Assembly: GCA_038143065.1 (NCBI GenBank)
Contig: JAYQLI010000017.1
Coordinates: 1 to 33,572, forward strand
Source of the DNA: Rhodospirillales bacterium
GTDB lineage: Bacteria; Pseudomonadota; Alphaproteobacteria; Bin95
Direction of reading: 5' to 3'
DNA: 33,572 nucleotides
Shown here: positions 6,005 to 30,757 of the stretch, piece by piece
Layout of the letters: each line of letters opens with the position of its first letter
Numbering within the stretch: position 1 is the first letter of the stretch
Made by a program: the position numbers and the translations under genes
The notes under the pieces: generated by a model
What the model was told of the DNA's origin: nothing
Database searches by the model: none
Seen by the model: the letters and a program-made list of their open reading frames with translations, nothing else

Positions 6005-6023
6005 TAAACTTTGTTTGAATAAA

Positions 6024-6052: not shown

Positions 6053-6078
6053 ACTTCTGGGAAGAAGAGGTTATCGAA

Positions 6079-6845: not shown

Positions 6846-6848
6846 ATC

Positions 6849-7785: not shown

Positions 7786-7795
7786 TTGAATATGA

Positions 7796-9127: not shown

Positions 9128-9837
9128 TTAAAAATCAAGTTTTCGCGCAGCCCAAGAAATTCCACGTTTTACGATTTCCGTTACATCTGGCACCTTCAAA
9201 TCCTCAAGGCGATGCCCGATTGAACAATAGAAAATGCGACCCTTATCCCATCTGCGTTTCCAAATTACTGGCACGACAGTGCCTTCGATCCACCATAAAT
9301 GATCGCCTGAAAAAGTTGTGGTGGCCAACACTTCATTTGAGGCATCGGTTAACATAAAATACTGTTCGGAAAAGAGCTCGAAACTTTTGATCCCTTTTAC
9401 AATCGGGTCATTGGGCCGGGTAATCGTCACGTCATAAGAAACGAAATCATCTGATGGAATAGGATTATCGGGCTAACCTGGAGGATGGGCGACAAATTGC
9501 CCCCCGATCAAAAAGTGATAGGTTGGGCGATCGCGGAAGGCATCCCCATATGACCATGCCATCCGGCTAAGCCGCAGCCCGAGGCAACCAATTTTAGCAG
9601 TCCATCCTCTTGTTTTTTTGTCATATTACCAAATTCGGGCTGATGAGAAGATCGCGCGCTTGACCAAATGGGTATGATGACATTCACATCAGATAAGGTT
9701 TCGGGCTGCTCTAGAGGCACGAGCGTATCGTAGATTTCAACGTCATATCCGTCCGCTATCAATAAGTCAGAGCACCATTGTGCAAAATCGGTTGGCTTAT
9801 GGCCTTGCCAGCCCCCTACGAATAACACCGCCTTCAT
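9128..9837 (-). CDS. ThuA domain-containing protein (frameshifted)
   Basis: GGWQGHKP, GLAGWHG, SEQYFM, GRIFYCSIGH, RGISWAA motifs. Confidence 0.8.
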
Positions 9838-10700
9838 GTGTGTTCCTTTTTCAGATAGCTGATTACAGAGGCCATATCGCGGTTGACATAGCCTTTTTGG
9901 CTGGCCTGGTTCAAAATATCTAAGTTCAATTCTGCTTGCGGCATTTGAACATCCAAGCTCTGCGCCAAGCGTGTGGCAAGATCGACATCCTTGGCTGCTA
10001 AGCCAACGGTGAACGTAACTTGATGCGCTCGCTCATCCAAATAAAGTGGTTTGCGATAGCGTAACATAGGCGCGCAAGCAGCCGAAGCTTCCAAAGCTTC
10101 ATAGGCCAAGGGAAGCTCAATGCCTGCGGCTTGGGCGAGGTTAAGCGACTCTGCGGCTGCCTGATTCAAACTGTGTATCACCGAATTGATCGCAAGCTTC
10201 ATTGTCGCACCTGCAGATTGCTTGCCAAGAATGATCGTTTTTTCGCCCAAAGCGTCAAAAATTGGTAGCAAAGGCTGTGCTATTTCCTCTGACCCACCCA
10301 CCATAATCATCAATTTGCCCGCTTGAGCGGCTTGGGTGGCGCCGGAAACCGGCGCGTCTATGATAGCAGCACGGCTTGATTGGCTTTGTAATCGGTTGAT
10401 CCAATTCGGGCTGACAGTGCTCATCTCTATGAACACCATGGCTTTTTTGCCTTTTAATAAGCCCGCCTCACCCAGATAGACGTCCTGAGAGGCGGCATCA
10501 TCGGCAAGCATTGTAATAACGATATCGCAAGCAGAGGCTAAGGCTTCCGGTGTTTGAGCGATCTGGCACTGCATTTCAGTCGCAAAAGATGCGCTGCGCG
10601 CAGGGTTGCGGTTCCAGACTTGAATATCGAAACCAGCATTGATCAGATTTTTGGCCATGGGAACGACCATGCGGCCCAGGCCTGCAATCCCTAATTTCAT
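9834..10700 (-). CDS. NAD(P)-dependent oxidoreductase, 3-hydroxyisobutyrate dehydrogenase family
   Basis: GLGRM..PMA, WNR, EMSTVSP, DAPVSG, catalytic K in MKLAIN, KDVDLA. Confidence 0.88.
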   Translation of the reverse strand: MKLGIAGLGRMVVPMAKNLINAGFDIQVWNRNPARSASFATEMQCQIAQTPEALASACDIVITMLADDAASQDVYLGEAGLLKGKKAMVFIEMSTVSPNWINRLQSQSSRAAIIDAPVSGATQAAQAGKLMIMVGGSEEIAQPLLPIFDALGEKTIILGKQSAGATMKLAINSVIHSLNQAAAESLNLAQAAGIELPLAYEALEASAACAPMLRYRKPLYLDERAHQVTFTVGLAAKDVDLATRLAQSLDVQMPQAELNLDILNQASQKGYVNRDMASVISYLKKEHT

Positions 10701-10736
10701 AGTTTGTTACTTTCAATTATCGGCTCAACTGCATTT

Positions 10737-11543
10737 TTATTGAATGCACCAACCGCCATCGATATGCAGCATTTGACCGGTCATATAATCGCTGTCATGG
10801 CTGGCTAAAAATGCCGCTGTGCCTTTCACATCATCGGGGTAGGAGACGCGTTTGATTACAAGCTCATTATTGGTGATATCTTCGTAAGCTTGCCCTGCCC
10901 GCTCTTTGAAACCAATTTCAACTAAATCTTTGTCAAGCTGTTCCCAAAGAGGCGTAACGACCACGCCGGGAGCATACCCGTTCACGGTAATATTATGTTC
11001 CGCCAACGAGACGGGACCGCAATGCGTTAACGCCAAACATCCATATTTTGAAGTGCAATAGACGGTCACATCCACCAATGGCTTGCGGGAGGCAATGCTA
11101 CCAACATTGATCAATTTATATACGTGTTCTTGCGGACCCTGTTTAATCATTTGGCGCGCTGTTTCTTGCATGCCAAGCCACATTGCCTTGGTGTTGACCG
11201 ACATGATCATGTCCCAATTGTCTTCATCAATATCCATAAAAAACCGTGGCTTATTGAGACCTGCGTTGAACAGGCCGATATTGATCATGCCAAAAGCATC
11301 CACAGTGGCGGCCACGGCGGCCACATTGTCTTCGCGTTTGGTAACATCCATTTGAACCGCAATCGCTTTTCCATTGCCGCGCGCATTGATGGTTTCTGCC
11401 ATTTTATTGGCTAAATCAATGTCTAAATCTCCGAGGCAAACATTTGCGCCCTGTTGCGCAAAATGTTCCGCGTTGGTCGCGCCCATGCCGCGTGCTGCGC
11501 CGGTAATTAATATGTTTTTTCCTGCTAATCTTTGCGGATCCAT
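10737..11543 (-). CDS. SDR oxidoreductase (polyol/acetoin dehydrogenase-like)
   Basis: TGAARGMG, NAG, YCTSK, PGVVVTPLW, YMTGQ..IDGG; GGAGG RBS before ATG at 11543. Confidence 0.9.
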   Translation of the reverse strand: MDPQRLAGKNILITGAARGMGATNAEHFAQQGANVCLGDLDIDLANKMAETINARGNGKAIAVQMDVTKREDNVAAVAATVDAFGMINIGLFNAGLNKPRFFMDIDEDNWDMIMSVNTKAMWLGMQETARQMIKQGPQEHVYKLINVGSIASRKPLVDVTVYCTSKYGCLALTHCGPVSLAEHNITVNGYAPGVVVTPLWEQLDKDLVEIGFKERAGQAYEDITNNELVIKRVSYPDDVKGTAAFLASHDSDYMTGQMLHIDGGWCIQ

Positions 11544-11640
11544 GGTAAAAGCCTCCCATTGCACTTTTGATATTTTATAATCGGTTCCAATTACCGATCC
11601 ATCATTGTCAAAAGATTTCCCGGTGCAAAATTCGAATGCA

Positions 11641-11671
11641 TCCAAAATGAATTTAATTAATCCAAACTGGA
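11641..11671. promoter_or_regulatory. Two candidate operator boxes in divergent promoter region
   Basis: TCCAAAATGAA (11641..11651) and TCCAAACTGGA (11661..11671). Confidence 0.5.
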
Positions 11672-11754
11672 CTAATTTATGGTTCTGAATTTTGACTTTT
11701 GGTTGTTGGCTTGAGAGAGCTGCGAAAGTAGCAAAACATTTAGGGAGGACGAAC

Positions 11755-12777
11755 ATGTCTTATTTGAATAAGGTGGCCGGGGTTGCAGTTGCGGCAGGCG
11801 TCGCACTGGGCGGCATGGCCACATCAGTGCTGGCTGCATCCATTGTTTCTTTTAACGGACCCGCAGGGGAGGCTTATGTTGGCCGTTTCATTAAAGGAAT
11901 TAAAGAAACCGCAGCCTTAAAAGGCTTCGATATTAAAGTTTATGAAAACCAATACAACCAAGCCGAACAGGATCAACAAGTGCAACAGGTTTTGGCGACG
12001 GGCCAATTGCCTGATGTGTTCATCTGGTGGCCTTCTGATGCAGTCGCAGGTTTGGGTTCGCTGCGCGCCTTGGCCAAAACTGGCGTACCTGTTTTGAAAA
12101 TAAACCAGCTGCCAAACGAGCAGGACAAGCAATATATTTTTGGATATGCAGGTCCAGATGATCGTTTGCGCGCGCAATGCCGGTTATATGATGCGTGAAG
12201 CAGCGGCAGCGAAAAAAGCAGCGGGTGGGACAGGCTTCAATGTTCTTGCCTTGTCATACCCCCATTCTTATGGCGGTTATGGACTGTCTATCAATGCCTT
12301 CAAAGAAGCCATCGCTGGCTCAGATTTGAAAATCATTGGCGATGTGGATGAAGGCTTTGGTCAAGCAAATGGCTATAAAGGCGCGGCGAAAATGATCGCG
12401 GCTTTGCAAGGGCAAAGTATTGATTTCGTTTATGGAATGGATGATGCGATCTTGACAGGCGGTATCAAGGCTTTGGAAGAAGCTGGCATGGTCATGGGCG
12501 AAGATGTGATTGCTGTTGGAACGGTCTGTAATGGTGACAAACAGCTGATTGAAGAAGGGAAGCAGTTTGGAACAACGCTGCAATCTCCGCTTCATGAAGG
12601 ACAATTGGCTATCAAAATGGTAGAAGAATACCTGAACACAGGTAAACTGGCCAATTACATTAATTTCACGCCAAACCCTCAGTGACTAAAGATACGATCG
12701 AAACCACGGCGCTACGTGGTTATGATGGTAAACTCTATACAATCGAAGAGCTATGCTCGGGCGCTTGGGCAGACTAA
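11755..12777 (+). CDS. Sugar ABC transporter periplasmic binding protein (frameshifted)
   Basis: Signal peptide MSYLNKVAG...VLAA, GVPVLKIN, YGMDD, TTLQSP; ORFs 11692..12198 and 12140..12685 plus tail to TAA 12777; GGGAGG RBS. Confidence 0.8.
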
Positions 12778-12791
12778 CGGCCCCAAAACAG

Positions 12792-12822
12792 TATCTCTGC
12801 CGGCAAAAATCCGGCAGAGATA
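12792..12822 (+). terminator. Intercistronic stem-loop after binding-protein gene
   Basis: tatctctgccgg-caaaaat-ccggcagagata, 12-bp perfect stem. Confidence 0.65.
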
Positions 12823-12845
12823 TCCATTTTGAACGGAATAAATAA

Positions 12846-14365
12846 ATGACCGAATTGTTGAAATTATCCGGTGTTTCACGCTCATTTGGCGCAATTCACG
12901 CCTTAAAGGCCGTTGATTTCGAAATCGAAGCCGGCGAAATAATGGGTTTGGTTGGAGAAAACGGGGCTGGCAAATCAACTTTGGTAAAAATTATCAGTGG
13001 ATTTGACGATGGATATACTGGTGATTTCGTCCTGAACGGGAAAAGCCAACGATTTTCAAGCCCTCTTAAAGCTGAGCGGGCGGGTGTCGCCATCGCACAA
13101 CAAGAGCTGAGCTTGATACCGGCAATGAGCGTGGCTGAAAACGTTTTTATTTCTGGTGAGCACGCTCCGGTTTTTGCCACAAAAAGCAGTTTGGCGCGCA
13201 AAGCAAGCCCGTTTCTAAAAGAGGTTGGGCTTGAAGACGTAGATCCTTATATTCCTGTCGAACGCTTGTCTGTTGTATAACAACAATTGGTTGAAGTGGC
13301 GCTACTGCTTGCGAAACAGCCGCATATTTTAATCATAGATGAACCAACGGCGGCGTTGGGAGAAAGCGACTCTATTCGCATTCTTGCAATGGTTCAGCGG
13401 TTGGCCCAACGCGGTAAGTCGATTATTTACGTCAGCCACCGCATGGATGAAATCTTCAAAATTTGTGATCGGATTACCGTCTTGCGCGACGGTCAAAGCC
13501 AAGAAGCCCGGACTGCAAAAGAGCTTGATGTGTCCTCCTTGGTGGAATTGATGTTGGGCCGAGAGCTTGCAAACATGTTTCCTGCCCACCCCGAAATTCT
13601 GCGCACAAAACCTCTGTTAGAGGTTTGCGATGTTTGGCCCGATGGGACTTTAGAGCCGTTTAACTTTGCCGTATATCCTGGCGAAATCTTGGGCTTGGCA
13701 GGGCAGCTTGGATCTGGGTCAGGCGATGTTTTAGCCGCGATCTCAGGCGCGCGACAATCGCGCAGCGGGCACATTATTTATAACGGCGAAAGTTTTCTGC
13801 CCAAATCGCCAAAAGAGGCAATCGCCCGTGGTATCGCATATTGCTCGGATGATCGAAAACTAGATGGTTTATTTCTTGGACGTCCGATAATAGAAAACCT
13901 GACCTCGCCCGCTTTGGGGGCGATTTCAAATCGCGGCATAATTGACTTGATAGCCGAACGCGATCTTGCTCTATCAAATGGTACAAAATTTACAGTAGAT
14001 GTGACCCGGCTTGATAATGAAGCAGGCGTTCTATCGGGGGAAATCAACAAAAAGTCGCATTGGGAAAATGGCTGGCAATCGAGCCTAAAATTATCTTGGT
14101 GAATGAGCCGACACGCGGCGTGGATGTTGGTGCGCGCGCCGAGATTTATGCAAAGCTGCGCGATTTAGCAAATGATGGTGCCGCGGTTGTTTTCGCGTCT
14201 ACGGATATTCAAGAGGTTACCGGTCTGGCAGATCGAGTGATTAGTTTTTATCGTGGGATGCAGGTGGGTGAATTGGCGTTAAGCGACATCACACCCACCA
14301 ATGTTTTGCAACAAATAACCCATCCTTTTGGGGATGAAGACAAACAGATAAAGGTGGTGTCCTAA
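12846..14365 (+). CDS. Sugar ABC transporter ATPase, two-domain RbsA-like (in-frame TAA at 13278..13280, frameshift ~14040)
   Basis: GENGAGKST, IIDEPT, YVSHRM, DRKLDGL, NEPTRGVDVGAR. Confidence 0.88.
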
Positions 14366-15373
14366 TGCGCAGCACTTCTCGTGGTATGACCGCAAAGCTT
14401 GAGGGTTTGGTTCAGAATTATTCTGGGTTGGTGGTCTCTCTGGTGGCGCTTTTTTTGGTCATTTTCGTTGTTGGAATGGCAACAGCGCCAAACTTTTTGA
14501 CTGTTTTTAACCTTAAAACAATCGTGAGAGATGCCGCTTTGGTGGGCATCATGGCGATTGGGTTGACCTTTGTAACCCTATCGGGGAATTTCTTCCTGTT
14601 GTCGTTAAAAGAAACCGCTGCGCTTAGCATCATTGCTTTTGCAACTTCGATGTCGGCAGGCTACGGCTTTGAGATTTCCTTTTTGTTTACAATGGTCATT
14701 GCGATCCTGACAGGCAGCGCGCAGGGCGTGCTAATCGGTCTTGGCGGAAATCCGATTGTTGTAACGCTTGGAGCCGCTGGATTGCTATATGGTCTTGGCG
14801 CCTATTGGAGCGACAATCTGGTAGTGTCTTTTCGCCGACCGCACGGGGCAGAATGGCTTGGTACAGGATCTTTCTTGGGCCTTCCCAATATAACCATTGC
14901 CTTTATTCTCATAGCGCTTGTAGCCGAGTTAACCTTACGGTTCACAAATTTTGGTCGGCAGGTGTATTTGATTGGTGCTAACCGCGCGGCGGGTCGTGCA
15001 ACGGGGCATGAAAATTTTGCTATGGCTATTAAAACTTGTACGATTGCATCAGTCTGCGCGGCTTTTGTGGCTATCGCATTTTCGGCGCAAGTCTCAAGCG
15101 CTCAAGTGAATTACTTTTCATCTGAATTTGGGTCGAGCGGGGATATGACGATTATGGTGATCGCGACGGTCATGGTGGGGGGAATTCCATTATGGGGGGT
15201 ATGGATCAACAATTCGTTCGAGTTTGGGGGCAGTTTTCATCTCTTCTGTGGATAATATGATGGTGCTGCACGGGTTTAATTCCGGTCCAAGGGTGTTGGC
15301 GGTTGGATTGATGATTGTTTTTTCAATTATGGTGTTTGCGCTTGTGCGTCGTGGCAGCCGGTCGCAAGAATAG
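14365..15373 (+). CDS. Sugar ABC transporter permease (frameshift ~15195)
   Basis: Hydrophobic, NPIVVTLG, TNFGRQVYLIGAN, IATVMVGG. Confidence 0.82.
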
Positions 15374-15382
15374 GATAGGCTT

Positions 15383-16419
15383 ATGAAAAATATTAAACAT
15401 TGGATCGTTAAAAATCCTGATTTGGCGTTTGCGGTCTTATTGGCGATTTGTGTCTATTCTTATTTCGCGTTGACGAATGAATTCTTCGCCACGCACCGAA
15501 CCGGCTATGCTATTATGGAACGGTTCGCGGTATTGGGCCTTGTGGGGCTGGCGCTGACATTGTGCATTATCGCTGGTGAAATTGATTTGTCGATTGGGTC
15601 TAACGCGGCCTTGGCTGCGGTTATTGTAGTGCGTTTTACAGATAGTTTAGGGGCGGTTACCGCCCTGTTGATTGCTATTCTTATCTCTACGCTTGTGGGC
15701 GCGATACAGGGCTATTTTATTGCATATTTGCGGGTAAGGGCGATCGTTCTGACGGTTGGAACCTTAATGTTATTGCGCGGGTGGCGTTATTTGCGGCGCA
15801 AGAGAAGACAGTGATGTTGACTGATTTTCGCGTGCCCGACTTTATCTCCACCAAAATGTTCGTTTATTTTTCACCTGCCAGTTTTTTGGTGATTGTGATG
15901 TTTATTGTTGTTGGTTTGTTTATGACCTTTACCCGGTATGGCCGCGAGATTTATGCGATTGGCGGGGCGCGCAAAGAGGCTATCGCTGCGGGGATTTATT
16001 TGAAACGCCCAATGATCATTGTATTTGCTATTTCCGGGTTATGCGCTGGCTTGGGAGGGTGCATTATTGGTTTGCGCTCGGGCACGGCTCAGGCCTTGGG
16101 TTTGCAATATCTTTTGCTGGCCGGCACAGTTGCTGCTTTTATTGGCGGTGTATCGATTCTTGGCGGCAAAGGCGGCGTTGTCGGGGCTGCGATTGGAACG
16201 TTAACGGTCAATTTCTTAAATACAGGATTGGTTTTCAACGTCACGCCGGCTTTTATGATCCAGCTTTATTTAGGCATTTTATTGATGGTAGTGATTATGT
16301 TCCAAACTGGTAGTCGGTTGTTTGAAGGATATGAGAGGCGCAAGCAATTGCTCTCTGACGTTGATATTCGCCGATTGGATTTACTCGTGCGCAAAAACGC
16401 ATTTAAGCCCCCGCCATAA
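15383..16419 (+). CDS. Sugar ABC transporter permease (frameshift ~15780)
   Basis: GEIDLSIG, TRYGREIYAIGG, AAFIGGVS. Confidence 0.85.
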
Positions 16420-16423
16420 ATAT

Positions 16424-16447
16424 CCAAATTGGATTAATCCAATTTGG
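16424..16447. promoter_or_regulatory. Perfect 24-bp palindrome, candidate double operator
   Basis: CCAAATTGGATT|AATCCAATTTGG directly upstream of the wHTH-SBP gene. Confidence 0.65.
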
Positions 16448-16502
16448 TAATTATACATGGTATCCTACAGACTGGCTGTAAATGGAAATCTGAGGGTGCG
16501 CC

Positions 16503-18311
16503 ATGCCATCATCCAAATCGAATATTCGCCGCATAACATATCCGCGAAGTCGGCATCGCGACGCGCCGGAAGGGCCGTATGAAACAACAGATATCCGACC
16601 AAAATCTGGCGTTGCAAACGCAGAATTGGAAAGCTTTCTTGATTTTGTCGAGCAATTTGACATGGAAATGGAACGCTCATTGTCTATCAAGAAAGGCTAT
16701 AGCGAAACACGCATTCTCGGAACGCTTCTACGGGATCATCTCTCGGGTAAAACATCTACGACCTCGTCTTTAATCGGCGCCTCTGGAATGAGTTATGGCA
16801 CGGCCATTCGCGCGGTTGAGGCAATTGAGAACCGGGGGCTTTTGCTGCGCCGACCGCGCACATCCAGCGGTAAATCATTTTCGTTGCATCCGACTGAAAA
16901 ACTGTTGAGTGAATGGCAAGAATTTGCCAGACGGGCGCGGGCGGCTTTGCAAAGTACCTGGGGACTTACGGGTTCAAAAGATGCGTCCGATTATTATTTT
17001 GGAGCCTCTTATTCCACTGGAAAAGTTTTACCCCCGCCTTCGATAATGAGCGTCAAGCTTCCGCTCAGCGGAAACCTTAGATTATTGGAACATGCCGATC
17101 CGACGTTCATGGCGATGCAGGCCTTGAAGCGTCAATTTGAAAAAATCTTCGGTTTGTCTATCAAAAGCCGCGCCTTGTCGATTGACCGCTTGCGCGAGGA
17201 AATACTAGAAAATGCCAGCCTTGCCAAATCAAGATATGATATTGTTGCCTGCGATTTGCCTTGGTTCGGTGAAATGGCACAAGCGGGCTATTTTCTTCCG
17301 TTGGATTCATTTATTAAAGCCGAGCGATTTGACACCCATGACTTTCACCTCAAAGCTTTGGCCAGCGCCCGCTATAAGGGGGTGCAATATGGTTTGCCAG
17401 TTCAAACAACGCCTGAACTCTTGGTCTATCGCAGCGATGTGTTTGCCGAGTTTGGTTTAACCCCGCCTCTAACAATTGCCGATACGCTTTCTGCGGCCAA
17501 AACAATCCATTCGCCATTCAAGGGGATGACGGGAATGGCTTGGAATGCCGGACGCGGCACACCTTTGGGCCATTCATTTTTATTCGTCATGGCCGCCTTT
17601 GGACAACCTGTTTTAAATTTATCGCCTTCTGCAGATGGGTTTGACGGAGAGCATGTGGAAGGAGAGAATTTCCGTCCCATGTTTGATTCCGACGCGGCGT
17701 GGGAGGCGGCGGAGTATTTCAAAGAACTCATCGATTATTCGCCGCGTGGCATTTTAAACATGTCTTGGTTTGACCGCGCGGTTTCATATGCTGAAGGCAA
17801 TTGCGCCATGGCGCATTGCGCGACTTTGCTCGCACCATTATTTGAACTGGATAAAACATCCCCCGCGTTTGAAAAAACAGAATATCTACCGCTTCCGGCA
17901 GGTCCAAAGGGACGGTCTATTGCGCCAATCGGAGGATACGCGCTGGCCATTCCTGCGAATGTTGACCCAGCGCGGTTTGATCCAATTTGGACGGCTTTGA
18001 CGTCGCTAACATCAGCACAAACCGTCAAACTTTATATAGAGAATGGAAGTTTGGTAAGCCCGCGGTTTAGTGTCAGTCAGGACCCTGAAGTTCAAAAGAT
18101 CTCACCGCTGATTTCGATTGTGGATGAGATGGCGCGAACTGGGGTTTTGCAAATGTGGCCACGCCCGCCAGTGCCTGAAATTACGCGCTTAATTGCGATG
18201 ATAGGAGAAGAAATGCATGATGCTTTGCTGGGAGACAAAACGCTTGCGACGGCGCTACAAAATTCACAAAACCGTGCCGATCGCCTCATGCGCGAAAACG
18301 GGCATTACTGA
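16503..18311 (+). CDS. Winged-helix + family-1 solute-binding domain fusion protein, putative regulator
   Basis: N-terminal TTSSLIGASGMSYGTAIRAVEAIENRGLLLRR wHTH-like segment; C-terminal sugar SBP motifs (YDIV..DLPW, LPLD, YGLP, LVYRSDVF, GGYALAIP); no signal peptide. Confidence 0.85.
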   Translation: MPSSKSNIRRITYPRSRHRDAPEGPYETTDIRPKSGVANAELESFLDFVEQFDMEMERSLSIKKGYSETRILGTLLRDHLSGKTSTTSSLIGASGMSYGTAIRAVEAIENRGLLLRRPRTSSGKSFSLHPTEKLLSEWQEFARRARAALQSTWGLTGSKDASDYYFGASYSTGKVLPPPSIMSVKLPLSGNLRLLEHADPTFMAMQALKRQFEKIFGLSIKSRALSIDRLREEILENASLAKSRYDIVACDLPWFGEMAQAGYFLPLDSFIKAERFDTHDFHLKALASARYKGVQYGLPVQTTPELLVYRSDVFAEFGLTPPLTIADTLSAAKTIHSPFKGMTGMAWNAGRGTPLGHSFLFVMAAFGQPVLNLSPSADGFDGEHVEGENFRPMFDSDAAWEAAEYFKELIDYSPRGILNMSWFDRAVSYAEGNCAMAHCATLLAPLFELDKTSPAFEKTEYLPLPAGPKGRSIAPIGGYALAIPANVDPARFDPIWTALTSLTSAQTVKLYIENGSLVSPRFSVSQDPEVQKISPLISIVDEMARTGVLQMWPRPPVPEITRLIAMIGEEMHDALLGDKTLATALQNSQNRADRLMRENGHY

Positions 18312-18353
18312 TCCCATGAAAATCCAAATTCGAGCTGCTCGAGGAGATATAAA

Positions 18354-19658
18354 ATGACCACGCCCAATGCCTTACATCCTAACGTGTTAACGCCAGCTGA
18401 TCTTGAACCAAATTGGCGCTGGGAGGGTCGTTTACCAGCCTGGGGGCACACATCGGTTGATTTTGAGCGGCGCGTTGATCATGATCGGTTGCGTCGCTAC
18501 CGCCTAAGTCGCACGCGCCAAGCTTTGAAAGCCTCGAATGCAGGCACGCTATTACTCTTTGACGTGAACAATATCCGCTATGTTTCGGCGACTAAAATCG
18601 GCGAATGGGAGCGCGATAAAATGTGCCGTTTTTGCCTCTTAACAGGTGATGATAGCCCATATGTGTGGGATTTTGGGTCTGCTGCAGTGCATCACCAAAA
18701 ATATTCTGATTGGTTGGAGCCAGATCATTGTTTGGCCGGTGTGGTCGGTATGCGGGGGACGATTCCGCCCGAGTTTGGGTTGATGAGGAAATACGCTAAG
18801 CAAATCGCTGGATTGATCAAAGATGCAGGTATGGCTGATATGCCTGTTGGGGTCGATTATGCGGAAACGGCTATGTTTCACGCGCTTCAAGAAGAAGGCA
18901 TTAATGTGATTGATGGCCAACAGATCATGCTGGCCGCGCGTGAGATCAAGAATTGGGATGAAATTCAACTTCTCACCCAAGCTGCGAGCATGGTGGATGG
19001 TGTTTATCATATGATCTATGAGGAACTGAAACCCGGTGTTCGTGAAAATGACATCGTCGCCTTGTCAAATAAAATGCTTTATGAAATGGGCTCTGATGAT
19101 GTTGAGGCAATCAATGCCATCTCAGGAGAGCGGTGTAACCCGCATCCTCATAATTTCACAGACCGACTGATCCGTCCTGGCGATCAGGCATTTTTCGATA
19201 TTTTGCAAAGTTATCAGGGATATCGCACTTGTTATTACAGAACCTTCAATGTTGGACGAGCAACGCCGTCTCAAAACGATGCTTATATCAAGGCGCGTGA
19301 ATGGCTCGAGGCGTCGATCCAAATGATCAAGCCGGGCGTGAGTACAGATAAAGTGGCCGAGGTTTGGCCAACGGCGGAAAGCTTGGGATTTCCAAATGAA
19401 GACGCGGCTTTTGGGTTACAATTTGGCCATGGTCTTGGTCTGGCCTTGCATGAGCGCCCTATTATCAGCAGGGCGGTCAGTATTGATCATCCAATGGAAA
19501 TAAAAACAGGCATGGTGTTTGCGCTTGAAACCTATTGTCCTGCCACTGACGGCTATTCAGCCGCACGTATCGAAGAAGAGGTCGTGGTGACGGATACGGG
19601 CTGCGAAGTGATTAGTTTATTTCCCGCCGAAGAGCTGCCGATTGCCAACCGCTATTAA
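18354..19658 (+). CDS. M24 (Xaa-Pro peptidase/creatinase fold) enzyme
   Basis: LLFDVNNIRY, AREIKNWDEI, GHGLGLALHERP, GMVFALET, RIEEEVVVT. Confidence 0.88.
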   Translation: MTTPNALHPNVLTPADLEPNWRWEGRLPAWGHTSVDFERRVDHDRLRRYRLSRTRQALKASNAGTLLLFDVNNIRYVSATKIGEWERDKMCRFCLLTGDDSPYVWDFGSAAVHHQKYSDWLEPDHCLAGVVGMRGTIPPEFGLMRKYAKQIAGLIKDAGMADMPVGVDYAETAMFHALQEEGINVIDGQQIMLAAREIKNWDEIQLLTQAASMVDGVYHMIYEELKPGVRENDIVALSNKMLYEMGSDDVEAINAISGERCNPHPHNFTDRLIRPGDQAFFDILQSYQGYRTCYYRTFNVGRATPSQNDAYIKAREWLEASIQMIKPGVSTDKVAEVWPTAESLGFPNEDAAFGLQFGHGLGLALHERPIISRAVSIDHPMEIKTGMVFALETYCPATDGYSAARIEEEVVVTDTGCEVISLFPAEELPIANRY

Positions 19659-19716
19659 ACAATTTTGGGTGTGGCGTAGTTTGCACAAGCAGTTCAAATC
19701 ATGAGTATGGAATATA

Positions 19717-20724
19717 ATGCCTAAAAAAAACCAAACAAATTCTGCGGAATATATGCGAATGTATATGCAGATGATGCGTATTCGGGCTTTCGAAGATAAC
19801 GCAAATCAATTATATCTATCTGCCAAAATGCCAGGTCTTACGCATATGTATTCAGGGCAAGAAGCGGTAGCTGTTGGGATCTGTGAAGCGTTAACGACCA
19901 GCGATAAGATCACGTCAACCCATCGTGGTCACGGCCATTGCCTGGCCAAAGGCGCGGATCTGAAGCTGATGTTTTGTGAACTTCTGGGCAAAGAAGAGGG
20001 CTATTGCCGTGGCAAAGGCGGATCGATGCATATTGCCGATCAATCAAATGGCAACTTAGGAGCAAATGCTATTGTGGGGGGCTCAATGGGTATCGCGACA
20101 GGGGCTGCCTTGTCGGCTAAGCGCTTAGGAACCTCTGATATTGTGGTTTGCTTTTTCGGCGATGGGGCTACGGCGCAAGGCTTGATGTATGAGGTTATGA
20201 ATATGGCCGCGCTGTGGAAGCTTCCGGTGATTTATGCCTGCGAAAACAATCTCTATGGCGAATACACCAAGGTTGAAGAAACGCTGGCTGGCGATATCAC
20301 TGCGCGCGCAGAGGCTTTCGGAATTGAGGCCTTGCAGGTGGATGGGCAAGACGTATTGGCGGTGAATGAGTGCACGCAGCGCCTGGCTGAACGCTGCCGG
20401 AAAGGCGAGGGCCCATTTTTTATGGAACTGCTGACCTATCGCTATCATGGGCATCATGTTGGCGATATTAACCGAGAATATTACCGTTCAAAGGAAGAAG
20501 AAGCCGAGTGGAAAAACAACCGTGACCCGATCAAAAATTTTGGGGCCTGGTTAACGTCGCAAGGAATTGCTTCTGAAGACGAGTTAAACGCCTTGCAATC
20601 GGAGATTAAAACCGAGGCTTCAGAGGCGGTGGAATATGCTTTGAACGCTGCTTATCCCAGCGAAACAGAGGTGGGTTTGCATGTTTTTGCAGCCACGCCG
20701 CAGATGGGAGAAGAGCATGCGTGA
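19717..20724 (+). CDS. TPP-dependent dehydrogenase E1 alpha subunit (AcoA/PdhA-like)
   Basis: GQEA, STHRGHGH, GKGGSMH, GDGA...ENN, TYRYHGH. Confidence 0.92.
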   Translation: MPKKNQTNSAEYMRMYMQMMRIRAFEDNANQLYLSAKMPGLTHMYSGQEAVAVGICEALTTSDKITSTHRGHGHCLAKGADLKLMFCELLGKEEGYCRGKGGSMHIADQSNGNLGANAIVGGSMGIATGAALSAKRLGTSDIVVCFFGDGATAQGLMYEVMNMAALWKLPVIYACENNLYGEYTKVEETLAGDITARAEAFGIEALQVDGQDVLAVNECTQRLAERCRKGEGPFFMELLTYRYHGHHVGDINREYYRSKEEEAEWKNNRDPIKNFGAWLTSQGIASEDELNALQSEIKTEASEAVEYALNAAYPSETEVGLHVFAATPQMGEEHA

Positions 20725-21712
20725 AATCACTCTTTCTAAGGCTGTTAATGAAGCGATTGCCGAAGAGATGCGGCGCGATGAAACAATTTTTTTGCTTGGG
20801 GAAGACGTTGCTGAAGCGGGCACTCCGTTCAAAATACTTTCTGGTCTTGTCGAAGAATTTGGAACGGATCGCATTGTTGATACTCCGATTGCTGAGCCCG
20901 GGTTTATGGGCATAGCGGTCGGTGCTGCGATGACGGGCAGCAGGCCAATCGTAGATTTGATGTTCGGCGATTTTCTATTTTTAATCATGGACCAATTATG
21001 CAACCAAGCGGCAAAAACCCATTATATGTCGGGGGGCAAGCTCAATGTACCATTGGTGCTACGCACCAATTTGGGCGCCACCCGTCGGTCTGCCGCGCAG
21101 CATAGTCAATCTTTGCATGCTTTGGTGGCGCACATTCCTGGTTTGAAAGTGGCTCTTCCGTCATCAGCCTATGAGGCGAAAGGGCTTTTGAAAACCGCTA
21201 TTCGCGACAATAATCCAGTGGTAATTTTTGAAGATAAGCTCATGTATAATGATAAGGCGCCGGTGCCAGAGGAAGAGTTTCTTATTCCGTTTGGGGTGGC
21301 AAATATAAAGCGAGTGGGCACTGATATCACCCTGATCGCAACCTCATCGATGGTTCAAGTCGCCGAACAAGCCGCTGATATATTGGCAGAACAGGACATC
21401 AGTGCCGAGGTGATTGATCCGCGCACGATCGTACCCCTTGATGAAGAAACCTTGATCGCTTCGGTGAAAAAAACCAGCCGAGCAATCGTGATAGATGAAG
21501 GCCATCAGAGCTATGGAATTACCGGAGAAATTGCCAGCCGACTGACCGAAAAGGCATTCTATCATTTAGATGCTCCAGTCATGCGGATGGGGGCAATGGA
21601 TGTGCCGGTGCCGTTTTCTCCAGTGCTTGAGGATTTGACGGTTCCAACCCCTGCCGGCGTGGCTGAGATGGCAAGAAAACTATTCTCAGGCGAGTTGATC
21701 CATGCCGCATGA
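20717..21712 (+). CDS. TPP-dependent dehydrogenase E1 beta subunit (AcoB/PdhB-like)
   Basis: GEDV, DTPIAE, AAQHSQS, IPGLKV, EVIDPRT. Confidence 0.92.
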   Translation: MREITLSKAVNEAIAEEMRRDETIFLLGEDVAEAGTPFKILSGLVEEFGTDRIVDTPIAEPGFMGIAVGAAMTGSRPIVDLMFGDFLFLIMDQLCNQAAKTHYMSGGKLNVPLVLRTNLGATRRSAAQHSQSLHALVAHIPGLKVALPSSAYEAKGLLKTAIRDNNPVVIFEDKLMYNDKAPVPEEEFLIPFGVANIKRVGTDITLIATSSMVQVAEQAADILAEQDISAEVIDPRTIVPLDEETLIASVKKTSRAIVIDEGHQSYGITGEIASRLTEKAFYHLDAPVMRMGAMDVPVPFSPVLEDLTVPTPAGVAEMARKLFSGELIHAA

Positions 21713-23054
21713 CGTGATCATGCCCGCCTTGGGGATGGCACAAGAAACCGGTGTAATCCTATCTTGGTTGAAAAAACCAGGGGATCAGGTTTCGCTGGGT
21801 GATGCCTTGATGGAAGTGGAAACAGATAAAGCTGTTATGGAAGTTGAGTCATCTGCTGCGGGGGTTTTGAGCGATGTAAAAGCAGCTGCCGGAGAGAGTG
21901 TGCCGGTAGGGCAGGTGGTTGCGGTGATTTTGGATCCTGAAGAGGTGTTAAGCACGCAGATAAGCCCAACAGAGAAGCCCAGTGGGGTTGCCCCGCATGG
22001 TGCTACATCAACAGAGGCAATCCCTGCAAATATAGATGTGACATCGCAGATAGTTATGCCAGCCCTTGGTATGGCACAGGAAACCGGGCGTGTGATCGCC
22101 TGGCATAAACAGGTTGGTGAGGAAACGGATGTTGATGATATTCTGCTTGAAGTAGAAACGGATAAAGCCACTATGGAAGTGCCTGCGGGAAAAGCTGGCT
22201 TTGTAGCCAATTTATTCGTGGGCGCTGGTCAAGAGGTTCCGGTAGGTTCTGTTATTGCGACCCTTTCGAATGTTAAACCTTCGGGTATTGCCGCGCCTCA
22301 GCAGCCGCTTACAAAGCCCATTACAGTTCCAGCCGAGACACCGACCTCGGTTGCAATGTCATCTGTCTTAAAACCCCGCTTTATACAACCGGGAAGCCAA
22401 ACAACGGATGTAGTGGCAGGTTCAGGGAAAATTTTGGCCTCACCAAAAGCGCGGCGTTTGGCCTTAGAAAATGACTTAGATTTGAACCTTTTGGCAAAGG
22501 CTGGATATGCTCAGCCGTATCACGTTGCTGATCTTGAGCGCTTTGATGACTTGCCTCAACTAAAAACAGAAAAATCTGTCTTAGGAAATAATAAGCGCAT
22601 TAATGCGGCTATTCCCGTCATTGGTGTAGAAAGCTTTCTCGCAAAGTTAAGAGAGCAGGCAGATATTGAAATATCTGACTATTTGGTCTGGGCCAGTTTT
22701 GCGTCTGCTGCTTGGCGGAATCAAAATCAAACACATGCAGCGGTGATCGTTGAAGTCGCAGAGCTTTTAACGCCAATTGGAATTTATGAAAACTTAGACA
22801 CGCAGCGCCTTTCGCGTGCGGTGCAATGCAATACCCAAAATCCGCCCAATTTTATAATTCGAACCCTGAGTAAAAGTTTAATTACTGCTCTGCACTTGGA
22901 TCACAGCTGTCCCAGCATCACCGTCCAAAAAACAGCCACGGATTATCTGATATCATTTGAATTTTCTGCCAATGCTATGTCTGACTTCGCAGCTGTGGCG
23001 TTTATATCAGATTTTGCGGCGCGTTTAGAAAATCCGTTGAGACAGCTACTTTAA
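21702..23054 (+). CDS. E2-like protein: two lipoyl domains + E1/E3-binding domain + degenerate acyltransferase-like domain
   Basis: Two MPALG...VETDKA lipoyl domains, ASPKARRLA; C-terminus ends AFISDFAARLENP but lacks DHRxxDG. Confidence 0.8.
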   Translation: MPHDVIMPALGMAQETGVILSWLKKPGDQVSLGDALMEVETDKAVMEVESSAAGVLSDVKAAAGESVPVGQVVAVILDPEEVLSTQISPTEKPSGVAPHGATSTEAIPANIDVTSQIVMPALGMAQETGRVIAWHKQVGEETDVDDILLEVETDKATMEVPAGKAGFVANLFVGAGQEVPVGSVIATLSNVKPSGIAAPQQPLTKPITVPAETPTSVAMSSVLKPRFIQPGSQTTDVVAGSGKILASPKARRLALENDLDLNLLAKAGYAQPYHVADLERFDDLPQLKTEKSVLGNNKRINAAIPVIGVESFLAKLREQADIEISDYLVWASFASAAWRNQNQTHAAVIVEVAELLTPIGIYENLDTQRLSRAVQCNTQNPPNFIIRTLSKSLITALHLDHSCPSITVQKTATDYLISFEFSANAMSDFAAVAFISDFAARLENPLRQLL

Positions 23055-23073
23055 GGGAATGGAGACTATCGTC

Positions 23074-24500
23074 ATGCAAACTAACCTTTATATTGATGGG
23101 AATTGGGTGCCAAGCCAGTCCGCCCAGCGCTTTGATGTGGTGAACCCTGCAACAGAGGATGTGATTGCATCGGTTGCCTCTGCGGATATTTTTGATGCCG
23201 ATTTGGCATTAAATGCGGCTTCCATCGCCATGCAAGAATGGGCTGCACGATCGCCTCGGGATCGTTCGGAAGTTTTGCGCAAAGCTTGGGAATTAATGAC
23301 GGCGCGATTGCCAGAATTTGCACGTTTAATCACGCTAGAAAATGGCAAAGCAAATGCCGATGCGATGGGAGAAGCCACCTATGCTGCCGAGTTTTTTCGC
23401 TGGTTTGCCGAAGAGGCGGTGCGCGTAGACGGTCTGATTGCGCATGCGCCCGCTTCAGGGGCACGGATCATTGTTCAGCATAAGCCAGCCGGGATTGCGG
23501 TTTTGGTGACCCCTTGGAATTACCCTGCGGCTATGGGAACGCGTAAAATTGCACCTGCTTTGGCGGCCGGTTGTGCGGTCATTATAAAGCCAGCATCGGA
23601 AACGCCTTTAACAATGCTGGCGCTTATGCCGCTTCTAGAAGAAGCTGGGGTGCCCAAAGGGGTGGTCAACGTTCTTCCATCCCGCAACACCGGCGTGCTG
23701 GTTGATCATATGTTACATGATCCGCGCGTGCGGGTAGTCAGTTTTACAGGGTCGACTGAAGTGGGGCGTAAGTTGCTTCATTCTGCGGCTGACCAAGTCT
23801 TGAAACCGGCTATGGAATTGGGGGGGAATGCTCCTGCGATTGTTTTTGAGGATGCTAATCTTGATGTGGCGGTGGAAGGCGTGATGCTGGCAAAAATGCG
23901 CAATTTGGGCGAGGCCTGTACCGCGGCAAATCGAATTTATGTGCATTCAAGTATTGCGCCAGCCTTTACCGAAAAGTTCACATCTGCCATGGCGGAGTTG
24001 AAAATCGGCAATGGTTTAGAGGCAGGCATAGATGTAGGCCCTCTGGTCAATGCAGATACCCGCAATAAGGTGGATGCATTCGTGCAGGACGCGGTTGCAA
24101 AAGGCGCCAAAGTGGAACTTGGGGGCGTGTTACCTTCGGGAAAAGGGTTTTTTACCCGCCCACAGTATTGTCAGGCGTTCCAGAAACTGCAGATTGTGTG
24201 GGGGATGAAATTTTTGGACCTGTTGCAGCGCTTCAAACTTTCAACGATCAAGAAGATGTAATTCGCCGCGCCAATGATACCGAATATGGACTGGTGGCCT
24301 ATGTATTCTCGGAAGATATGAAGCGCGCTTTGCAAGTTTGTGAACGGCTGGATTATGGAATGGTCGGCTTGAACCGCGGGTTGGTCTCTGACCCAGCGGC
24401 GCCTTTTGGCGGCACAAAACAATCTGGCCTCGGCCGCGAGGGAGGGCATGAGGGCATGCATGAGTTTATGGAAACCCAGTATATCTCAGCCAGTTGGTAG
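23074..24500 (+). CDS. NAD(P)-dependent aldehyde dehydrogenase, SSADH/GabD-like (frameshift ~24150)
   Basis: TPWNYP, KPASETP, FTGST, MELGGNAP, GEAC, EIFGPV, PFGGTKQSGLGREG. Confidence 0.9.
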
Positions 24501-24509
24501 GATAATTTA

Positions 24510-25415
24510 ATGGAGGTTCAGGCATCACCAAGCGTGCGGGCTTATGCGGCTGAAAAAAATGTGACTTTGGGTGACGTAGCAACCTCGCTTAAACGGAGCG
24601 TGCTGGGTAAAGAGGATATTGACCGCTTTTGCGCAACTCCAAACACAAATTTAGGCACCAGTGTTGCGCCAGCCGTGGAAAATTCAGCAAAATATTGGGC
24701 GATTGACCACGCTCAATTCGGACCCATTAGCCTAGAACCCTTGACCCGCATTGAGCAGGTCGCAGAAGCGAATCTTTCAGCTGCAAATGCGATGATTCCT
24801 CAAGTGACGCACCATGATTATGTCGAGATCAGTGCCATTGAAGCATTTCGCGAAAGAGTGAAATCTGAAGCTCAACAGCGCGGTGTTAAATTAACCGCAC
24901 TGGCCTTTCATCTTAGGGCGCTCGCCGAATGTTTGCTCAAATTCCCGCGCTTCAATGCATCTATCTCCGCGGATAAAAAACATCTTATATTGAAGCAATA
25001 TGTGCATATCGCACTTGCGGTTGATACACCCCATGGATTGGTTGTTCCTGTTCTGAGACATGTGAATGAAAAAGGGTTATGGGACATCTCGAATGAAGTC
25101 TCAGATTTAGTGGAGAAAGCACAGTCGCGCAAATTGCGACCTGAGGAATTGGCAGGCGGCTCGGTCACAATCTCCAATCTTGGGCGGCTAGGCGGGACGG
25201 CTTTCACTCCTATTGTAAACCCGCCTCAAGTGGCAATTCTTGGGCTATCGCGTAGCGAATTTAGACCGTATTGGGATGGTTCTACTTGGCAGGCTATTCC
25301 GACAATTCCGTTGGATTTAAGCTATGATCATCGCATAATAAATGGAGCTGATGCTGCAAGGTTTATGAATGCGTATCGTAAATTTATAAGTATGCCAGAA
25401 CTTATGTTTTCATAA
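24510..25415 (+). CDS. 2-oxoacid dehydrogenase acyltransferase catalytic protein lacking lipoyl domains
   Basis: ASPSVRAYA, FPRFNAS, AVDTPHGLVVPV, TISNLG, FTPIVNPPQVAILG, DLSYDHRIINGADAARF. Confidence 0.88.
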   Translation: MEVQASPSVRAYAAEKNVTLGDVATSLKRSVLGKEDIDRFCATPNTNLGTSVAPAVENSAKYWAIDHAQFGPISLEPLTRIEQVAEANLSAANAMIPQVTHHDYVEISAIEAFRERVKSEAQQRGVKLTALAFHLRALAECLLKFPRFNASISADKKHLILKQYVHIALAVDTPHGLVVPVLRHVNEKGLWDISNEVSDLVEKAQSRKLRPEELAGGSVTISNLGRLGGTAFTPIVNPPQVAILGLSRSEFRPYWDGSTWQAIPTIPLDLSYDHRIINGADAARFMNAYRKFISMPELMFS

Positions 25416-25764: not shown

Positions 25765-25971
25765 TGCGCATGATGCGCATGACTTTTTCCAATAAACTTA
25801 TTTTCTTTCGCAATATTGCGCACGGATCACCATACCAAGCATTAGGCTTCAAATAAATATGAAAAATCATATACTTAAATATAACTTAAAAGTGGCCAAG
25901 AAAACTGATGCGCACATGCGCAAATTTTCTAATGTCAAAAATCAAAGGTTATATCGTCGTCATGCGCATCA
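25765..25971. repeat. TGCGCA iteron cluster around AT-rich core, candidate replication origin
   Basis: TGCGCA at 25765, 25774, 25817, 25909, 25917, 25963, at the 3' end of the VapE gene. Confidence 0.55.
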
Positions 25972-27470
25972 GTTATACGCACAAAACGCACCTGATCGCG
26001 TCGGTTGCCAGAGTTGAACTTCCCAGTTTTTTCAAAGCCCGCCATGACGAGGCAGTTTGACATTCGCCGCAAATCTCTTGGGGTGATTTTTTGAGGATCC
26101 AAAAGATCACCATCCACCCCAATCGATGGGAAGCATTTGGCAAATGCCTCTTTAATAGAAACCTCAGTCATGCCAGATAGATGCTGCCGAATTAACTCGA
26201 CCCAGATATCGCTTTCTTGTCGCAGCTCTGTCTGTTGCGCTGCATACAGAACATGTTGATCTGTGAGCCACCATTTTGGCTCTCGTTGATATTCCGCATA
26301 TGCCGCTGCCCAAATTGCATCGCGATCCCGTTTTAAACCAGCTACGTCAATCTTGGTTGTTTTAACTGGCAGAAATCGCCTGTTTCCAGTTTCGTCCAAA
26401 GCCCAGTCATCGCGGTTTGTGGTTGCAATGAAAACGCAGCGGCGGGGGTATATAATTTCATTGCGCTTATACGCAGGCCTATATTTCTCTTCTTGTCTGC
26501 TGATGAATGCTTTTTGCTGTTCGATTTTGGCTTTTTCCCTGGAAGGCCATTTCGGCAAGCTCTATGCACCATGCACCCACAATATAATCAGAGGCGTCTT
26601 TTGAGCCCATTGGGGCATACTGTCCTTGAACCAATCTAATCCGAATAATGCCCGCAATCCTGAGCTTTTGCCTATGCCCTGTTTGCCTTCCAAAACAATA
26701 ACTGTGTCCGCTTTGCAGCCAGCATTTACCGCACGCGCAACAGCTTGTTTTAGAAAGAGCGATGAAGCCACACGAATGAAGTCCTGATGCTCGTCATTCT
26801 CCGGCACGACACCAAAATAAGTTTCAAAGACGGTGGCTATATCAAGTTCACTTTCATCAAGCCCTTCTAGGTAATGTCGAACAGGGCTAATAGTTTGCTC
26901 GTCGCAAGCTGCATTTACCGCATCAATTACAACTTGCTTATTCACATTGCCCCAATTGCGTTGGATCCACATTTGAACTTTTGTGTAGTCATTGTCACCA
27001 ATAGGCCGTGGTTTAAAGTGAGCTGGGTTCCCAGTATCATATGGCGGCTTGGAAATGATCATTTCGCGGTTAGCAAGCTCATCAAACGCAAAGATTGACG
27101 ACCAGCGCTCATCTTCGGTTAACATTGCATAAACGTTTGCGGTATTTCGTACTGCGTCATCGCCAAACTTGGCACGCGCTCCATCGATCATAGGCTGCAC
27201 CTGCTTGCGTGTTTGCTCGATGTTGTATCCGTCAGTGGTCAAGCCATCCGTTACAGCGTGAATAGCTTCGTCCGTTTTTCCTTCAGCCACCAGACCTTTG
27301 GTGAGCCGCAAGAGACTGCTGTTCCATTGGCCTTCGTTTTGGCTTTTTGCGGCTAAGTCTTGGGCTGTTAAAATCGTCGATTGGCGAGCTGCAGATTTGG
27401 CCTGCGGTGCTGACTTTCTTTCGAACTTGGGCTGGAGCCTTGCAAACATTTGGTCGGGGTTATTCGACAT
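25935..27470 (-). CDS. VapE/VirE-family P-loop helicase with PriCT-like N-terminus (frameshift ~26610)
   Basis: FDEL, SPVRHYL, KADTVIVLEGKQGIGKSS Walker A, RRCVFIATTN, DETGNRRFLPV. Confidence 0.85.
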
Positions 27471-30682: not shown

Positions 30683-30757
30683 TCCGGCGTAGCTCAGCGG
30701 TAGAGCAGTTGACTGTTAATCAATTGGTCGTAGGTTCGATCCCTACCGCCGGAGCCA
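30683..30757 (+). tRNA. tRNA-Asn (GTT)
   Basis: TCCGGCG/CGCCGGA acceptor stem, TAGCTCAGCGGTAGAGC D arm, TTGAC-TGTTAAT-CAA anticodon region, GGTTCGATCCC T arm, encoded CCA. Confidence 0.97.

Follow-up and report, generated by a model that had tools for sequence, protein, structure and literature searches.

A gene cluster on contig JAYQLI010000017.1 of a Rhodospirillales bacterium (GenBank assembly GCA_038143065.1; Pseudomonadota, Alphaproteobacteria, Bin95) quite probably encodes a 2-oxoacid dehydrogenase system with a two-protein E2 that originated by duplication: P0001, a lipoyl carrier whose core domain is dead, and P0002, an acyltransferase that has no lipoyl domain. The whole stretch of DNA analysed, positions 1 to 33,572 of the forward strand, is referred to as the window. 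Bacterial 2-oxoacid dehydrogenase cores are generally seen as being made of a single E2 in which the arms, the binding domain and the active site are united. A functional division of labour between P0001 and P0002 is likely. The two proteins and their domains, with psiCD denoting a trimmed, histidine-less domain of E2 catalytic fold, are located as follows:

21702..23054, + strand: P0001, lipoyl carrier with dead core domain (two lipoyl domains, peripheral-subunit-binding domain (PSBD) and psiCD, i.e., LD-LD-PSBD-psiCD; 450 amino acids)
21711..21929, + strand: lipoyl domain 1 of P0001 (residues 4-76, ETDKAV), best Biotin_lipoyl stretch
22047..22265, + strand: lipoyl domain 2 of P0001 (residues ~116-188, ETDKAT), second Biotin_lipoyl stretch
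22428..22550, + strand: PSBD of P0001 (residues 243-283), from a partial E3_binding match and the AlphaFold2 model
22581..23051, + strand: psiCD of P0001 (residues 294-450, 157 residues), from VIA-align and hhalign
24510..25415, + strand: P0002, lipoyl-less E2 (PSBD and catalytic domain; 301 amino acids)
24516..24635, + strand: PSBD of P0002 (residues 3-42), from a partial E3_binding match at 3-25
24735..25409, + strand: catalytic acyltransferase domain of P0002, SYDHRIING, from PF00198

Biotin_lipoyl matches P0001 in two stretches (E 1.2e-35), and the NCBIfam E2 models start aligning at residues 115-117. The E3_binding match to the binding domain (residues 244-264) stays below the threshold, with 19.4 bits vs. 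a cut-off of 23.7; the domain is modeled as three helices (pLDDT >90) and is the best-conserved part of the carrier family (LASPK...G.P.P.H..D). About 185 C-terminal residues of P0001 are matched by no Pfam or NCBIfam model, and PF00198 finds no match in the protein at E ≤ 0.01. P0001 thus lacks the recognizable, catalytically competent PF00198 domain of a canonical E2 and keeps its fold alone. The automatic annotation (PGAP) names the carrier just “biotin/lipoyl-containing protein.”

That this C-terminal part is a core domain of E2 type follows from structure and from profile comparison. The AlphaFold2 model of psiCD, built on an alignment of 131 sequences, has a pLDDT of 92.9, and the top matches listed by Foldseek are all E2-family cores or models (E ~1e-9). 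Aligned by VIA-align with the human and bovine E2p cores, psiCD reaches Z 17.5 at a root-mean-square deviation of 2.5 Å, its 157 aligned residues spanning ~206 residues of those cores; the human E3BP model yields Z 16.3, and sequence identity is ~13-16% to E2 and E3BP structures alike. Profile alignment of the carrier family with the P0002 family by hhalign covers the binding domain and the core (probability 92.1%, E 6.1e-7; 64% with a smaller alignment) and places FEFSAN of P0001 opposite LSYDHR of the P0002 family, while BLASTP of P0001 against P0002 gave nothing significant beyond the binding domains (E 0.15-0.19). The column equivalent to the catalytic histidine contains H in none of the 131 sequences, DH[RK] is found in the last 70 residues of none of 155 carrier family members, and the columns equivalent to DHR are unconserved (top-residue frequencies 0.18-0.41). 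Compared with the P0002 model, psiCD is devoid of the canonical N-terminal strand and helix, of one inner helix and of part of a hairpin. Conservation is concentrated at the C-terminus, where R441 is conserved and P445 is found in 100%, L446 in 94% and L449 in 93% of the sequences (R..PLR(H/Q)LL), in addition to a few core positions. In canonical E2 cores a C-terminal 3-10 helix, the “knob,” enters a pocket of the facing trimer (PMC10415282, partial text), and the R..PLRHLL element of psiCD appears to lie at this inter-trimer position.

The domain belongs to a family of its own. A psiCD profile found no PDB chain by sequence, and a word-based search retrieved only a few relatives (29-33% identity), but the same kind of profile run against 1.84 billion representatives returned 311 at E ≤ 1e-3 and 245 at E ≤ 1e-10. 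In all but two of the 150 best matches listed, the match ends a few residues from the C-terminus; the proteins are mostly ~330-345 amino acids long, with one lipoyl domain, or 440-470, with two, and typically end in ...FA.RL..PLRHLL. The ESM Atlas offers only clusters of “hypothetical protein” for psiCD, some with E3_binding, which serve as leads only. Positions 9134-25020 of the window recur on another contig of the bin (G000, contig C10, 30014-14122) as a 15.9-kb block of 96.4% identity, and between the C17 and C10 copies psiCD shows 11 synonymous and 4 non-synonymous changes, i.e., a ratio of non-synonymous to synonymous substitution rates (dN/dS) of 0.10. Since it has 311 representatives, a confident fold and a low dN/dS, psiCD is a conserved family and a real, dead E2 core domain, neither decay nor artefact.

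P0002 has the complementary set of domains. PF00198 covers residues 76-300 at E 6.2e-74 (profile positions 7-231 of 232), so that the protein possesses the full-length domain and the DHRxxDG-type histidine motif of an E2 catalytic subunit; the PSBD is modeled as three helices at residues 7-42 (pLDDT ~90). Biotin_lipoyl has no match in P0002, which therefore lacks the lipoyl domain that a canonical E2 bears on the same chain. With TIGR01348 the PSBD and catalytic part score 310.9 bits; the absence of the lipoyl part keeps this under the cut-off of 552, which is set for the whole protein. The same composition holds for the family: a lipoyl TDK motif is present in 0 and DHR in 121 of 121 members, and the best 120 matches, named “2-oxo acid dehydrogenase subunit E2” and found in Rhodobacterales and Hyphomicrobiales, have 207-318 amino acids (median 297) and are, beyond two near-identical ones, 53-58% identical to P0002. 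Their motif reads SYDHR(V/I)(I/V/L)NGA, with S, Y, D, H, R, N, G and A invariant and Asn in place of the Asp of most E2s in 32 of 32 aligned sequences. The original prediction had read from this stretch a carrier at 21702..23054 with two ETDKA lipoyl domains, a binding domain and a shortened C-terminal domain in which the catalytic motif is replaced, as well as an acyltransferase at 24510..25415 with a binding-domain-like N-terminus, DHRIING and no lipoyl domain; coordinates and motifs were right, and the Pfam, hhalign and column data given above agree with each of these points.

The association of the two genes was examined in a census of 552 genomes from two alphaproteobacterial orders, in which P0002-type genes were called at ≥398 bits in open frames of 288-400 amino acids for the order of G041 and at E ≤ 1e-100 for the order of G043:

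Order of G041: 301 genomes; psiCD in 40, P0002 type in 36
Order of G043: 251 genomes; psiCD in 12, P0002 type in 10
Both orders: 552 genomes; psiCD in 52, P0002 type in 46 (47 counting one cut at a contig end)

All P0002-type genes reside in psiCD genomes, on the same contig and strand as the carrier gene and at most 2.3 kb from it, giving 47 pairs in the coordinate tables, whereas the 500 genomes that lack psiCD all lack P0002-type genes as well. Judged by gap size, an aldehyde dehydrogenase (ALDH) gene lies between the two in 45 of the 47 pairs, which tblastn confirmed in the 29 clusters examined. Of the six psiCD genomes that yielded no P0002-type match, G322 has the gene cut by the contig end, G076 retains only a degraded fragment, and the other four have an operon that is complete except for the E2 and terminates with the ALDH. 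The resulting picture is asymmetric: the arm-less E2 never occurs without the carrier, the carrier at times without the arm-less E2. As the census genomes are related to each other, these counts are descriptive and do not amount to a statistical test. A separate search of a species-genome collection, with a psiCD profile from a 4-sequence alignment, recovered the M24 hydrolase, E1 alpha, E1 beta, carrier, ALDH and E2 genes in 4 of 4 loci with enough flank and one psiCD locus in a metagenome-assembled genome (MAG) of the gammaproteobacterial Granulosicoccaceae. A fifth locus in that collection is error-laden, and in one Paracoccaceae MAG unrelated genes follow the ALDH.

In the window, the pair is embedded in a tightly packed run of + strand genes, in the order solute-binding protein (SBP), M24 hydrolase, E1 alpha, E1 beta, P0001, ALDH and P0002:

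10746..11543, - strand: SDR oxidoreductase, from Pfam adh_short on the open reading frame (ORF) 10737-11756
16503..18311, + strand: extracellular SBP, from SBP_bac_1 and SBP_bac_8; syntenic in relatives
18354..19658, + strand: M24 (creatinase / Xaa-Pro peptidase-like) hydrolase, from Peptidase_M24, E 2.4e-36
19717..20724, + strand: E1 alpha, dependent on thiamine diphosphate, from E1_dh, E 2.1e-83
20681..21712, + strand: E1 beta, from Transket_pyr and Transketolase_C
23059..24500, + strand: SSADH-like ALDH, from the Aldedh profile in two pieces
24148..24153, + strand: T6 homopolymer, one T short in the assembly; site of the ALDH frame break

E1 beta exceeds the NF006667 cut-off (385.8 bits vs. 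321) and its ORF end overlaps the start of P0001 by 11 nt, while E1 alpha stays below that of TIGR03182 (352 bits vs. 393.85). The SDR, a conserved operon member elsewhere, is 84% identical to that of the Phaeobacter operon.

Given the number of broken frames in this assembly, it must be asked whether the odd C-terminal domain or the split E2 could stem from an error-rich assembly or a dying gene. Many genes of the window are frame-broken, as are the chromosomal lpd and E2 genes on contig C35, and the C10 copy of P0002 is truncated. Two-frame genes in the window (1481-3060, 6884-7785, 7796-8918, 11692-12685, 12846-14102, 15383-16419, 23059-24500 and 25935-27470) include a GMC oxidoreductase, permeases, GFO/IDH/MocA, Peripla_BP_4, an ATPase of an ATP-binding cassette (ABC) transporter, the ALDH and VapE-like genes; an origin in assembly error was shown for the ALDH break alone. 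The C10 copy is broken at other places than the window, namely in E1 beta and in the ALDH. Over 21702-25415, the assembly was compared with contigs from two DNA and two RNA libraries of other studies. The assembled ALDH falls into two frames, 23059-24261 and 24168-24500, which match positions 1-353 and 355-460 of the Aldedh profile. Contigs of all four other runs have an additional T after 24147 at full depth, hence the break stems from an error of the assembly; the related clusters examined all have a single, intact ALDH. The same four independent runs match the P0001 and P0002 ORFs without indels, save a 1-base deletion at 25235 that is confined to one minor X1 contig (depth 30.2 of 130.9), so that both ORFs are independently confirmed. 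Six RNA libraries contain the stretch and two of these yield contigs over it, although presence in such a library is not proof of transcription. Moreover, 52 of 552 genomes and complete plasmids of cultured strains show the same architecture, and psiCD retains a confident fold and the low dN/dS given above. An artefact or decay is therefore hardly credible, and gene fission by frameshift was rejected, as P0001 has its own complete dead core domain and stop codon and the arrangement is conserved. Of the earlier claim that both ORFs are uninterrupted and separated by a whole ALDH gene, the first part stands and the second has to be amended, in that the ALDH is split as assembled, by error. Non-co-occurrence and unconserved decay of the C-terminal domain, which the original prediction had named as grounds for giving it up, are contradicted by the 47 syntenic pairs and by the conservation of psiCD.

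Clues to the origin of the pair come from the different forms of the operon. In the common form the carrier is followed by ALDH and E2; in a second form (G049/L074, G055/L075) the E2 follows the carrier directly, without ALDH; in a third (G047, L073) the same position is occupied by one canonical E2 of 410 amino acids with a lipoyl domain, a binding domain, PF00198 and the motif DHRVING; and in a fourth, carrier and ALDH are present without E2. L073, L074 and L075 are sister operons without ALDH or SDR, and the SBPs of L073 and L075 are 65% identical to that of the window, those of the common form 45-48%. A tree of 26 catalytic domains joins the fused E2 of G047 and the split family in a clade (support 97/92) beside AceF-like E2p, G047 E2 and P0002 both being on long branches. 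Along the AceF-type model PRK11854, residues 3-268 of P0001 align to positions 106-356 and residues 3-294 of P0002 to 332-630. The sister operons with an adjacent pair and with a fused E2 suggest tandem duplication with complementary loss. Accordingly, the pair most likely arose in this way from an operon-specific canonical E2, the direction of the steps being our inference: one copy would have lost catalysis and the other its lipoyl arms, after which the ALDH would have been inserted and the E2 occasionally lost. The fused form, which shares with the split one its place after SBP, M24, E1 alpha and E1 beta and the unusual DHRVING, has lipoyl, binding and catalytic domains on one chain and neither a dead paralog nor ALDH or SDR; it is present in 1 of 301 genomes of its order, vs. 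37 with the split form.

How the two proteins might be held together was approached by comparing pairwise protein distances across 28 clusters, using partial correlation and Mantel tests. Of the proteins compared, it is the E2 catalytic domain whose distances agree most closely with those of psiCD (raw r 0.78, partial r 0.68, Mantel p 0.0005); raw and partial values are 0.71 and 0.38 for E1 alpha, 0.72 and 0.43 for the ALDH, 0.54 and 0.05 for E1 beta, and 0.09 and -0.50 for M24. The intermediate values for ALDH and E1 alpha, together with the position of the ALDH between the genes in nearly all pairs, could be taken to mean that psiCD is a docking module for E1 or the ALDH, which would channel an aldehyde or acyl product, rather than a core subunit. 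The pairs of G049 and G055 have no ALDH, however, and psiCD covaries more strongly with the E2 catalytic domain, which makes such a module improbable. A stronger form of the two-protein E2, rather than an alternative to it, would be the heteromeric core proposed in the original prediction, a strict mixed core in which psiCD and the catalytic domain of P0002 co-assemble like E3BP and E2, the binding domains dividing the recruitment of E1 and E3. It would agree with the covariation, with the presence of a binding domain on both proteins, with human E3BP being among the fold matches of psiCD, and with the retained E2 fold and the conserved R..PLRHLL where canonical E2s have their knob (PMC10415282, partial text). 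On the other hand, psiCD is ~50 residues short of a canonical domain, N-terminal arm and helix included, operons without P0002 exist, and the E3BP match is no better than those of active E2s, so that a strict mixed core is a serious possibility to which we would give somewhat less than even chances.

Several observations weigh against the proposal that P0001 and P0002 form one E2, or against its stricter versions. Four of the 52 psiCD genomes (G148, G220, G430 and G470) have an operon with an intact carrier gene in which the ALDH comes last, contrary to an obligate pairing, and a second cluster in G329 likewise ends there and has no P0002-type gene; the absence of P0002-type genes from these operons holds at the thresholds used. 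The carrier thus has no strict need for this partner. The C10 copy of P0002 is cut at residue 170, beyond which unrelated sequence and chemotaxis genes follow. In the covariation test, which is weak, the clusters are related and fast-evolving proteins give more signal, and the background for the partial r included the comparison proteins. Evolution of psiCD is fast, with a mean Kimura distance of 1.17 vs. 0.30 for the E2 catalytic domain. The P0001 of the window deviates at two positions where the family residue is present in 95%, G258D in the binding domain and D388T in a psiCD strand (regions of residues 258 and 388: window 22473 and 22863). Without its N-terminal strand and helix and one inner helix, psiCD may, as modeled, be unable to take the normal place in a core. 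Finally, the tree leaves the branching inside the clade of split and G047 proteins, and hence the order of events, undecided. The ~4 times faster evolution of psiCD fits a structural role, and G258D and D388T, together with the long branch of P0002 (0.55), point to faster change in this host.

The persistence of the carrier without P0002 in 4 of 52 genomes and the heavy trimming of psiCD could also be reconciled with two separate assemblies, in which P0001 would form a small scaffold of its own, e.g., a trimer that holds E1, and P0002 a lipoyl-less core, with contact through the lipoyl arms only. There is a precedent in OdhA, which receives lipoyl groups in trans (PMC10415282, partial text). 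The linkage of the two genes is very tight, though, P0002-type genes never being found without the carrier, and the knob-like C-terminus, like the covariation, hints at a contact that is not just transient, without being decisive; such separate assemblies are rather unlikely. For the two-protein E2 with division of labour, the following course would result. E1 alpha-beta would load the acyl group onto the lipoyl-lysines of P0001, P0002 would pass it to coenzyme A, and E3 would reoxidise the lipoyl groups, the cell's own E3 in the present genome and a dedicated lpdA in Phaeobacter. In this cycle psiCD would serve only as the structural anchor of P0001, and the system would have its setting in a horizontally mobile catabolic operon (SBP, SDR, M24, E1 alpha-beta, carrier, ALDH, E2). 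Domain content, fold, loss of catalytic residues, conservation and gene linkage are established directly, whereas acyl flow, origin and physical association of the proteins we infer. Tentatively, and with odds leaning against it, one may go further and suppose that an E3BP-like system arose in bacteria separately from that of eukaryotes, with psiCD keeping just the “knob” end, which would plug all lipoyl arms and one peripheral enzyme onto a lipoyl-less E2 core. A separate gene would then set E1/E3 recruitment and the number of arms, and lineages that lost the E2 would use another acyltransferase.

Among known systems, the eukaryotic E3BP is the closest in architecture. Its hallmarks are an E2-like topology, a binding domain and an inactive domain homologous to the acetyltransferase, and fungal E3BP has a reduced core-binding domain (PMC10156792, partial text). 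Similarly, P0001 is a presumably lipoylated E2 paralog with a binding domain and a histidine-less C-terminal domain that stands beside a catalytic E2. It has the same order of lipoyl domain, PSBD and inactive E2-homologous C-terminal domain, which bears out the analogy to E3BP drawn earlier as far as architecture is concerned. The differences are that eukaryotic E2p keeps lipoyl domains of its own, whereas the dead paralog is the only arm carrier here; that the present system is bacterial, operon-encoded and plasmid- or island-borne; and that its catalytic partner P0002 groups with bacterial AceF-like E2s in the tree. Actinobacterial OdhA/KGD resembles it in that lipoyl groups are supplied in trans, OdhA using the lipoyl domains of E2p (AceF); its lipoyl-less E2 is, however, fused to E1o and the donor AceF is an active E2 (PMC10415282, partial text). 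P0002, in contrast, is a free protein of 301 amino acids with its own binding domain and no fused E1o, and its donor is dead; the E2o domain of OdhA is among the fold matches of psiCD (Z 14.8).

The best NCBIfam match of P0001 is AcoC (NF011457), which likewise combines a lipoyl domain with a non-standard C-terminal part and works with a heteromeric E1 alpha-beta. The match is limited to residues 3-80 and, with 142.8 bits vs. a cut-off of 307, P0001 falls outside this family. The C-terminal part of AcoC has an alpha/beta-hydrolase fold, psiCD the E2/CAT fold. In the full-text literature, no paper on a bacterial lipoyl-carrier pseudo-E2 with a lipoyl-less E2, or on this operon, was found, subscription-only papers and supplements lying outside the search.

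The operon is mobile in other hosts. The same genes are carried by plasmids of Phaeobacter gallaeciensis, P. inhibens, P. piscinae, Tritonibacter mobilis, Marinovum algicola and Pacificitalea manganoxidans, 18 plasmid records in all, in which the carrier is annotated as “biotin/lipoyl-containing protein” or as a second “E2.” On pGal_E78 of P. gallaeciensis DSM 26640, which carries the operon as genes GAL_RS21120 to GAL_RS21145, lpdA follows the E2, which is not the case in three other plasmids inspected, nor in L009-L012. In three Rhodobacterales loci (L070, L071 and L072), an E3 gene follows an AceF-like E2 with a lipoyl-domain match just upstream of the E3, a sequence context that suggests an E3 with an N-terminal lipoyl domain. 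In the window, split VapE-like genes (25935-27470, - strand) and a tRNA-Asn gene (30683-30757) lie just after the operon. Since psiCD was found in none of 40 searched relatives from the window's own lineage and the operon has this flank, the cluster looks like a horizontally acquired island in the present genome. The C10 block may reflect a genuine duplication or else a second strain within the bin, for which contamination is put at 5.5%.

The M24 hydrolase is 76-93% identical across alpha- and gammaproteobacterial clusters. Together with E1 beta it evolves most slowly among the proteins of the operon, and its distances do not follow those of the remaining ones (r -0.05 to 0.26). Its likeness to DddP and ectoine hydrolase is only distant, the scores of 117 and 64 bits being far under the cut-offs. 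Positions 1-12700 of the window harbor GFO/IDH/MocA, GMC oxidoreductase, ThuA-like and 3-hydroxyisobutyrate-dehydrogenase-like genes, a second SBP and a sugar-type ABC transporter. These upstream genes suggest oxidation and uptake of sugars or polyols and may hint at the class of substrate; our guess for the operon is a keto compound derived from a sugar or polyol.

Elsewhere, a division of the E2 between a dead-core carrier and an active partner is known from the E2/E3BP pair in the mitochondria of animals and fungi, and the actinobacterial OdhA/AceF exception drew attention because it departs from the single-E2 view (PMC10415282, partial text). The dead arm carrier with its arm-less E2 is present in ~9% of the sampled genomes of two alphaproteobacterial orders (52 of 552, counting carriers). 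It also occurs in one MAG of a gammaproteobacterium and on plasmids of Phaeobacter and Tritonibacter strains that are in culture. For the mitochondrial complex, it is described as an open question why E3BP is inactive and how it sits in the core (PMC10156792, partial text). A small, operon-encoded counterpart that comes in fused, adjacent, ALDH-separated and partner-lost versions would make these questions testable.

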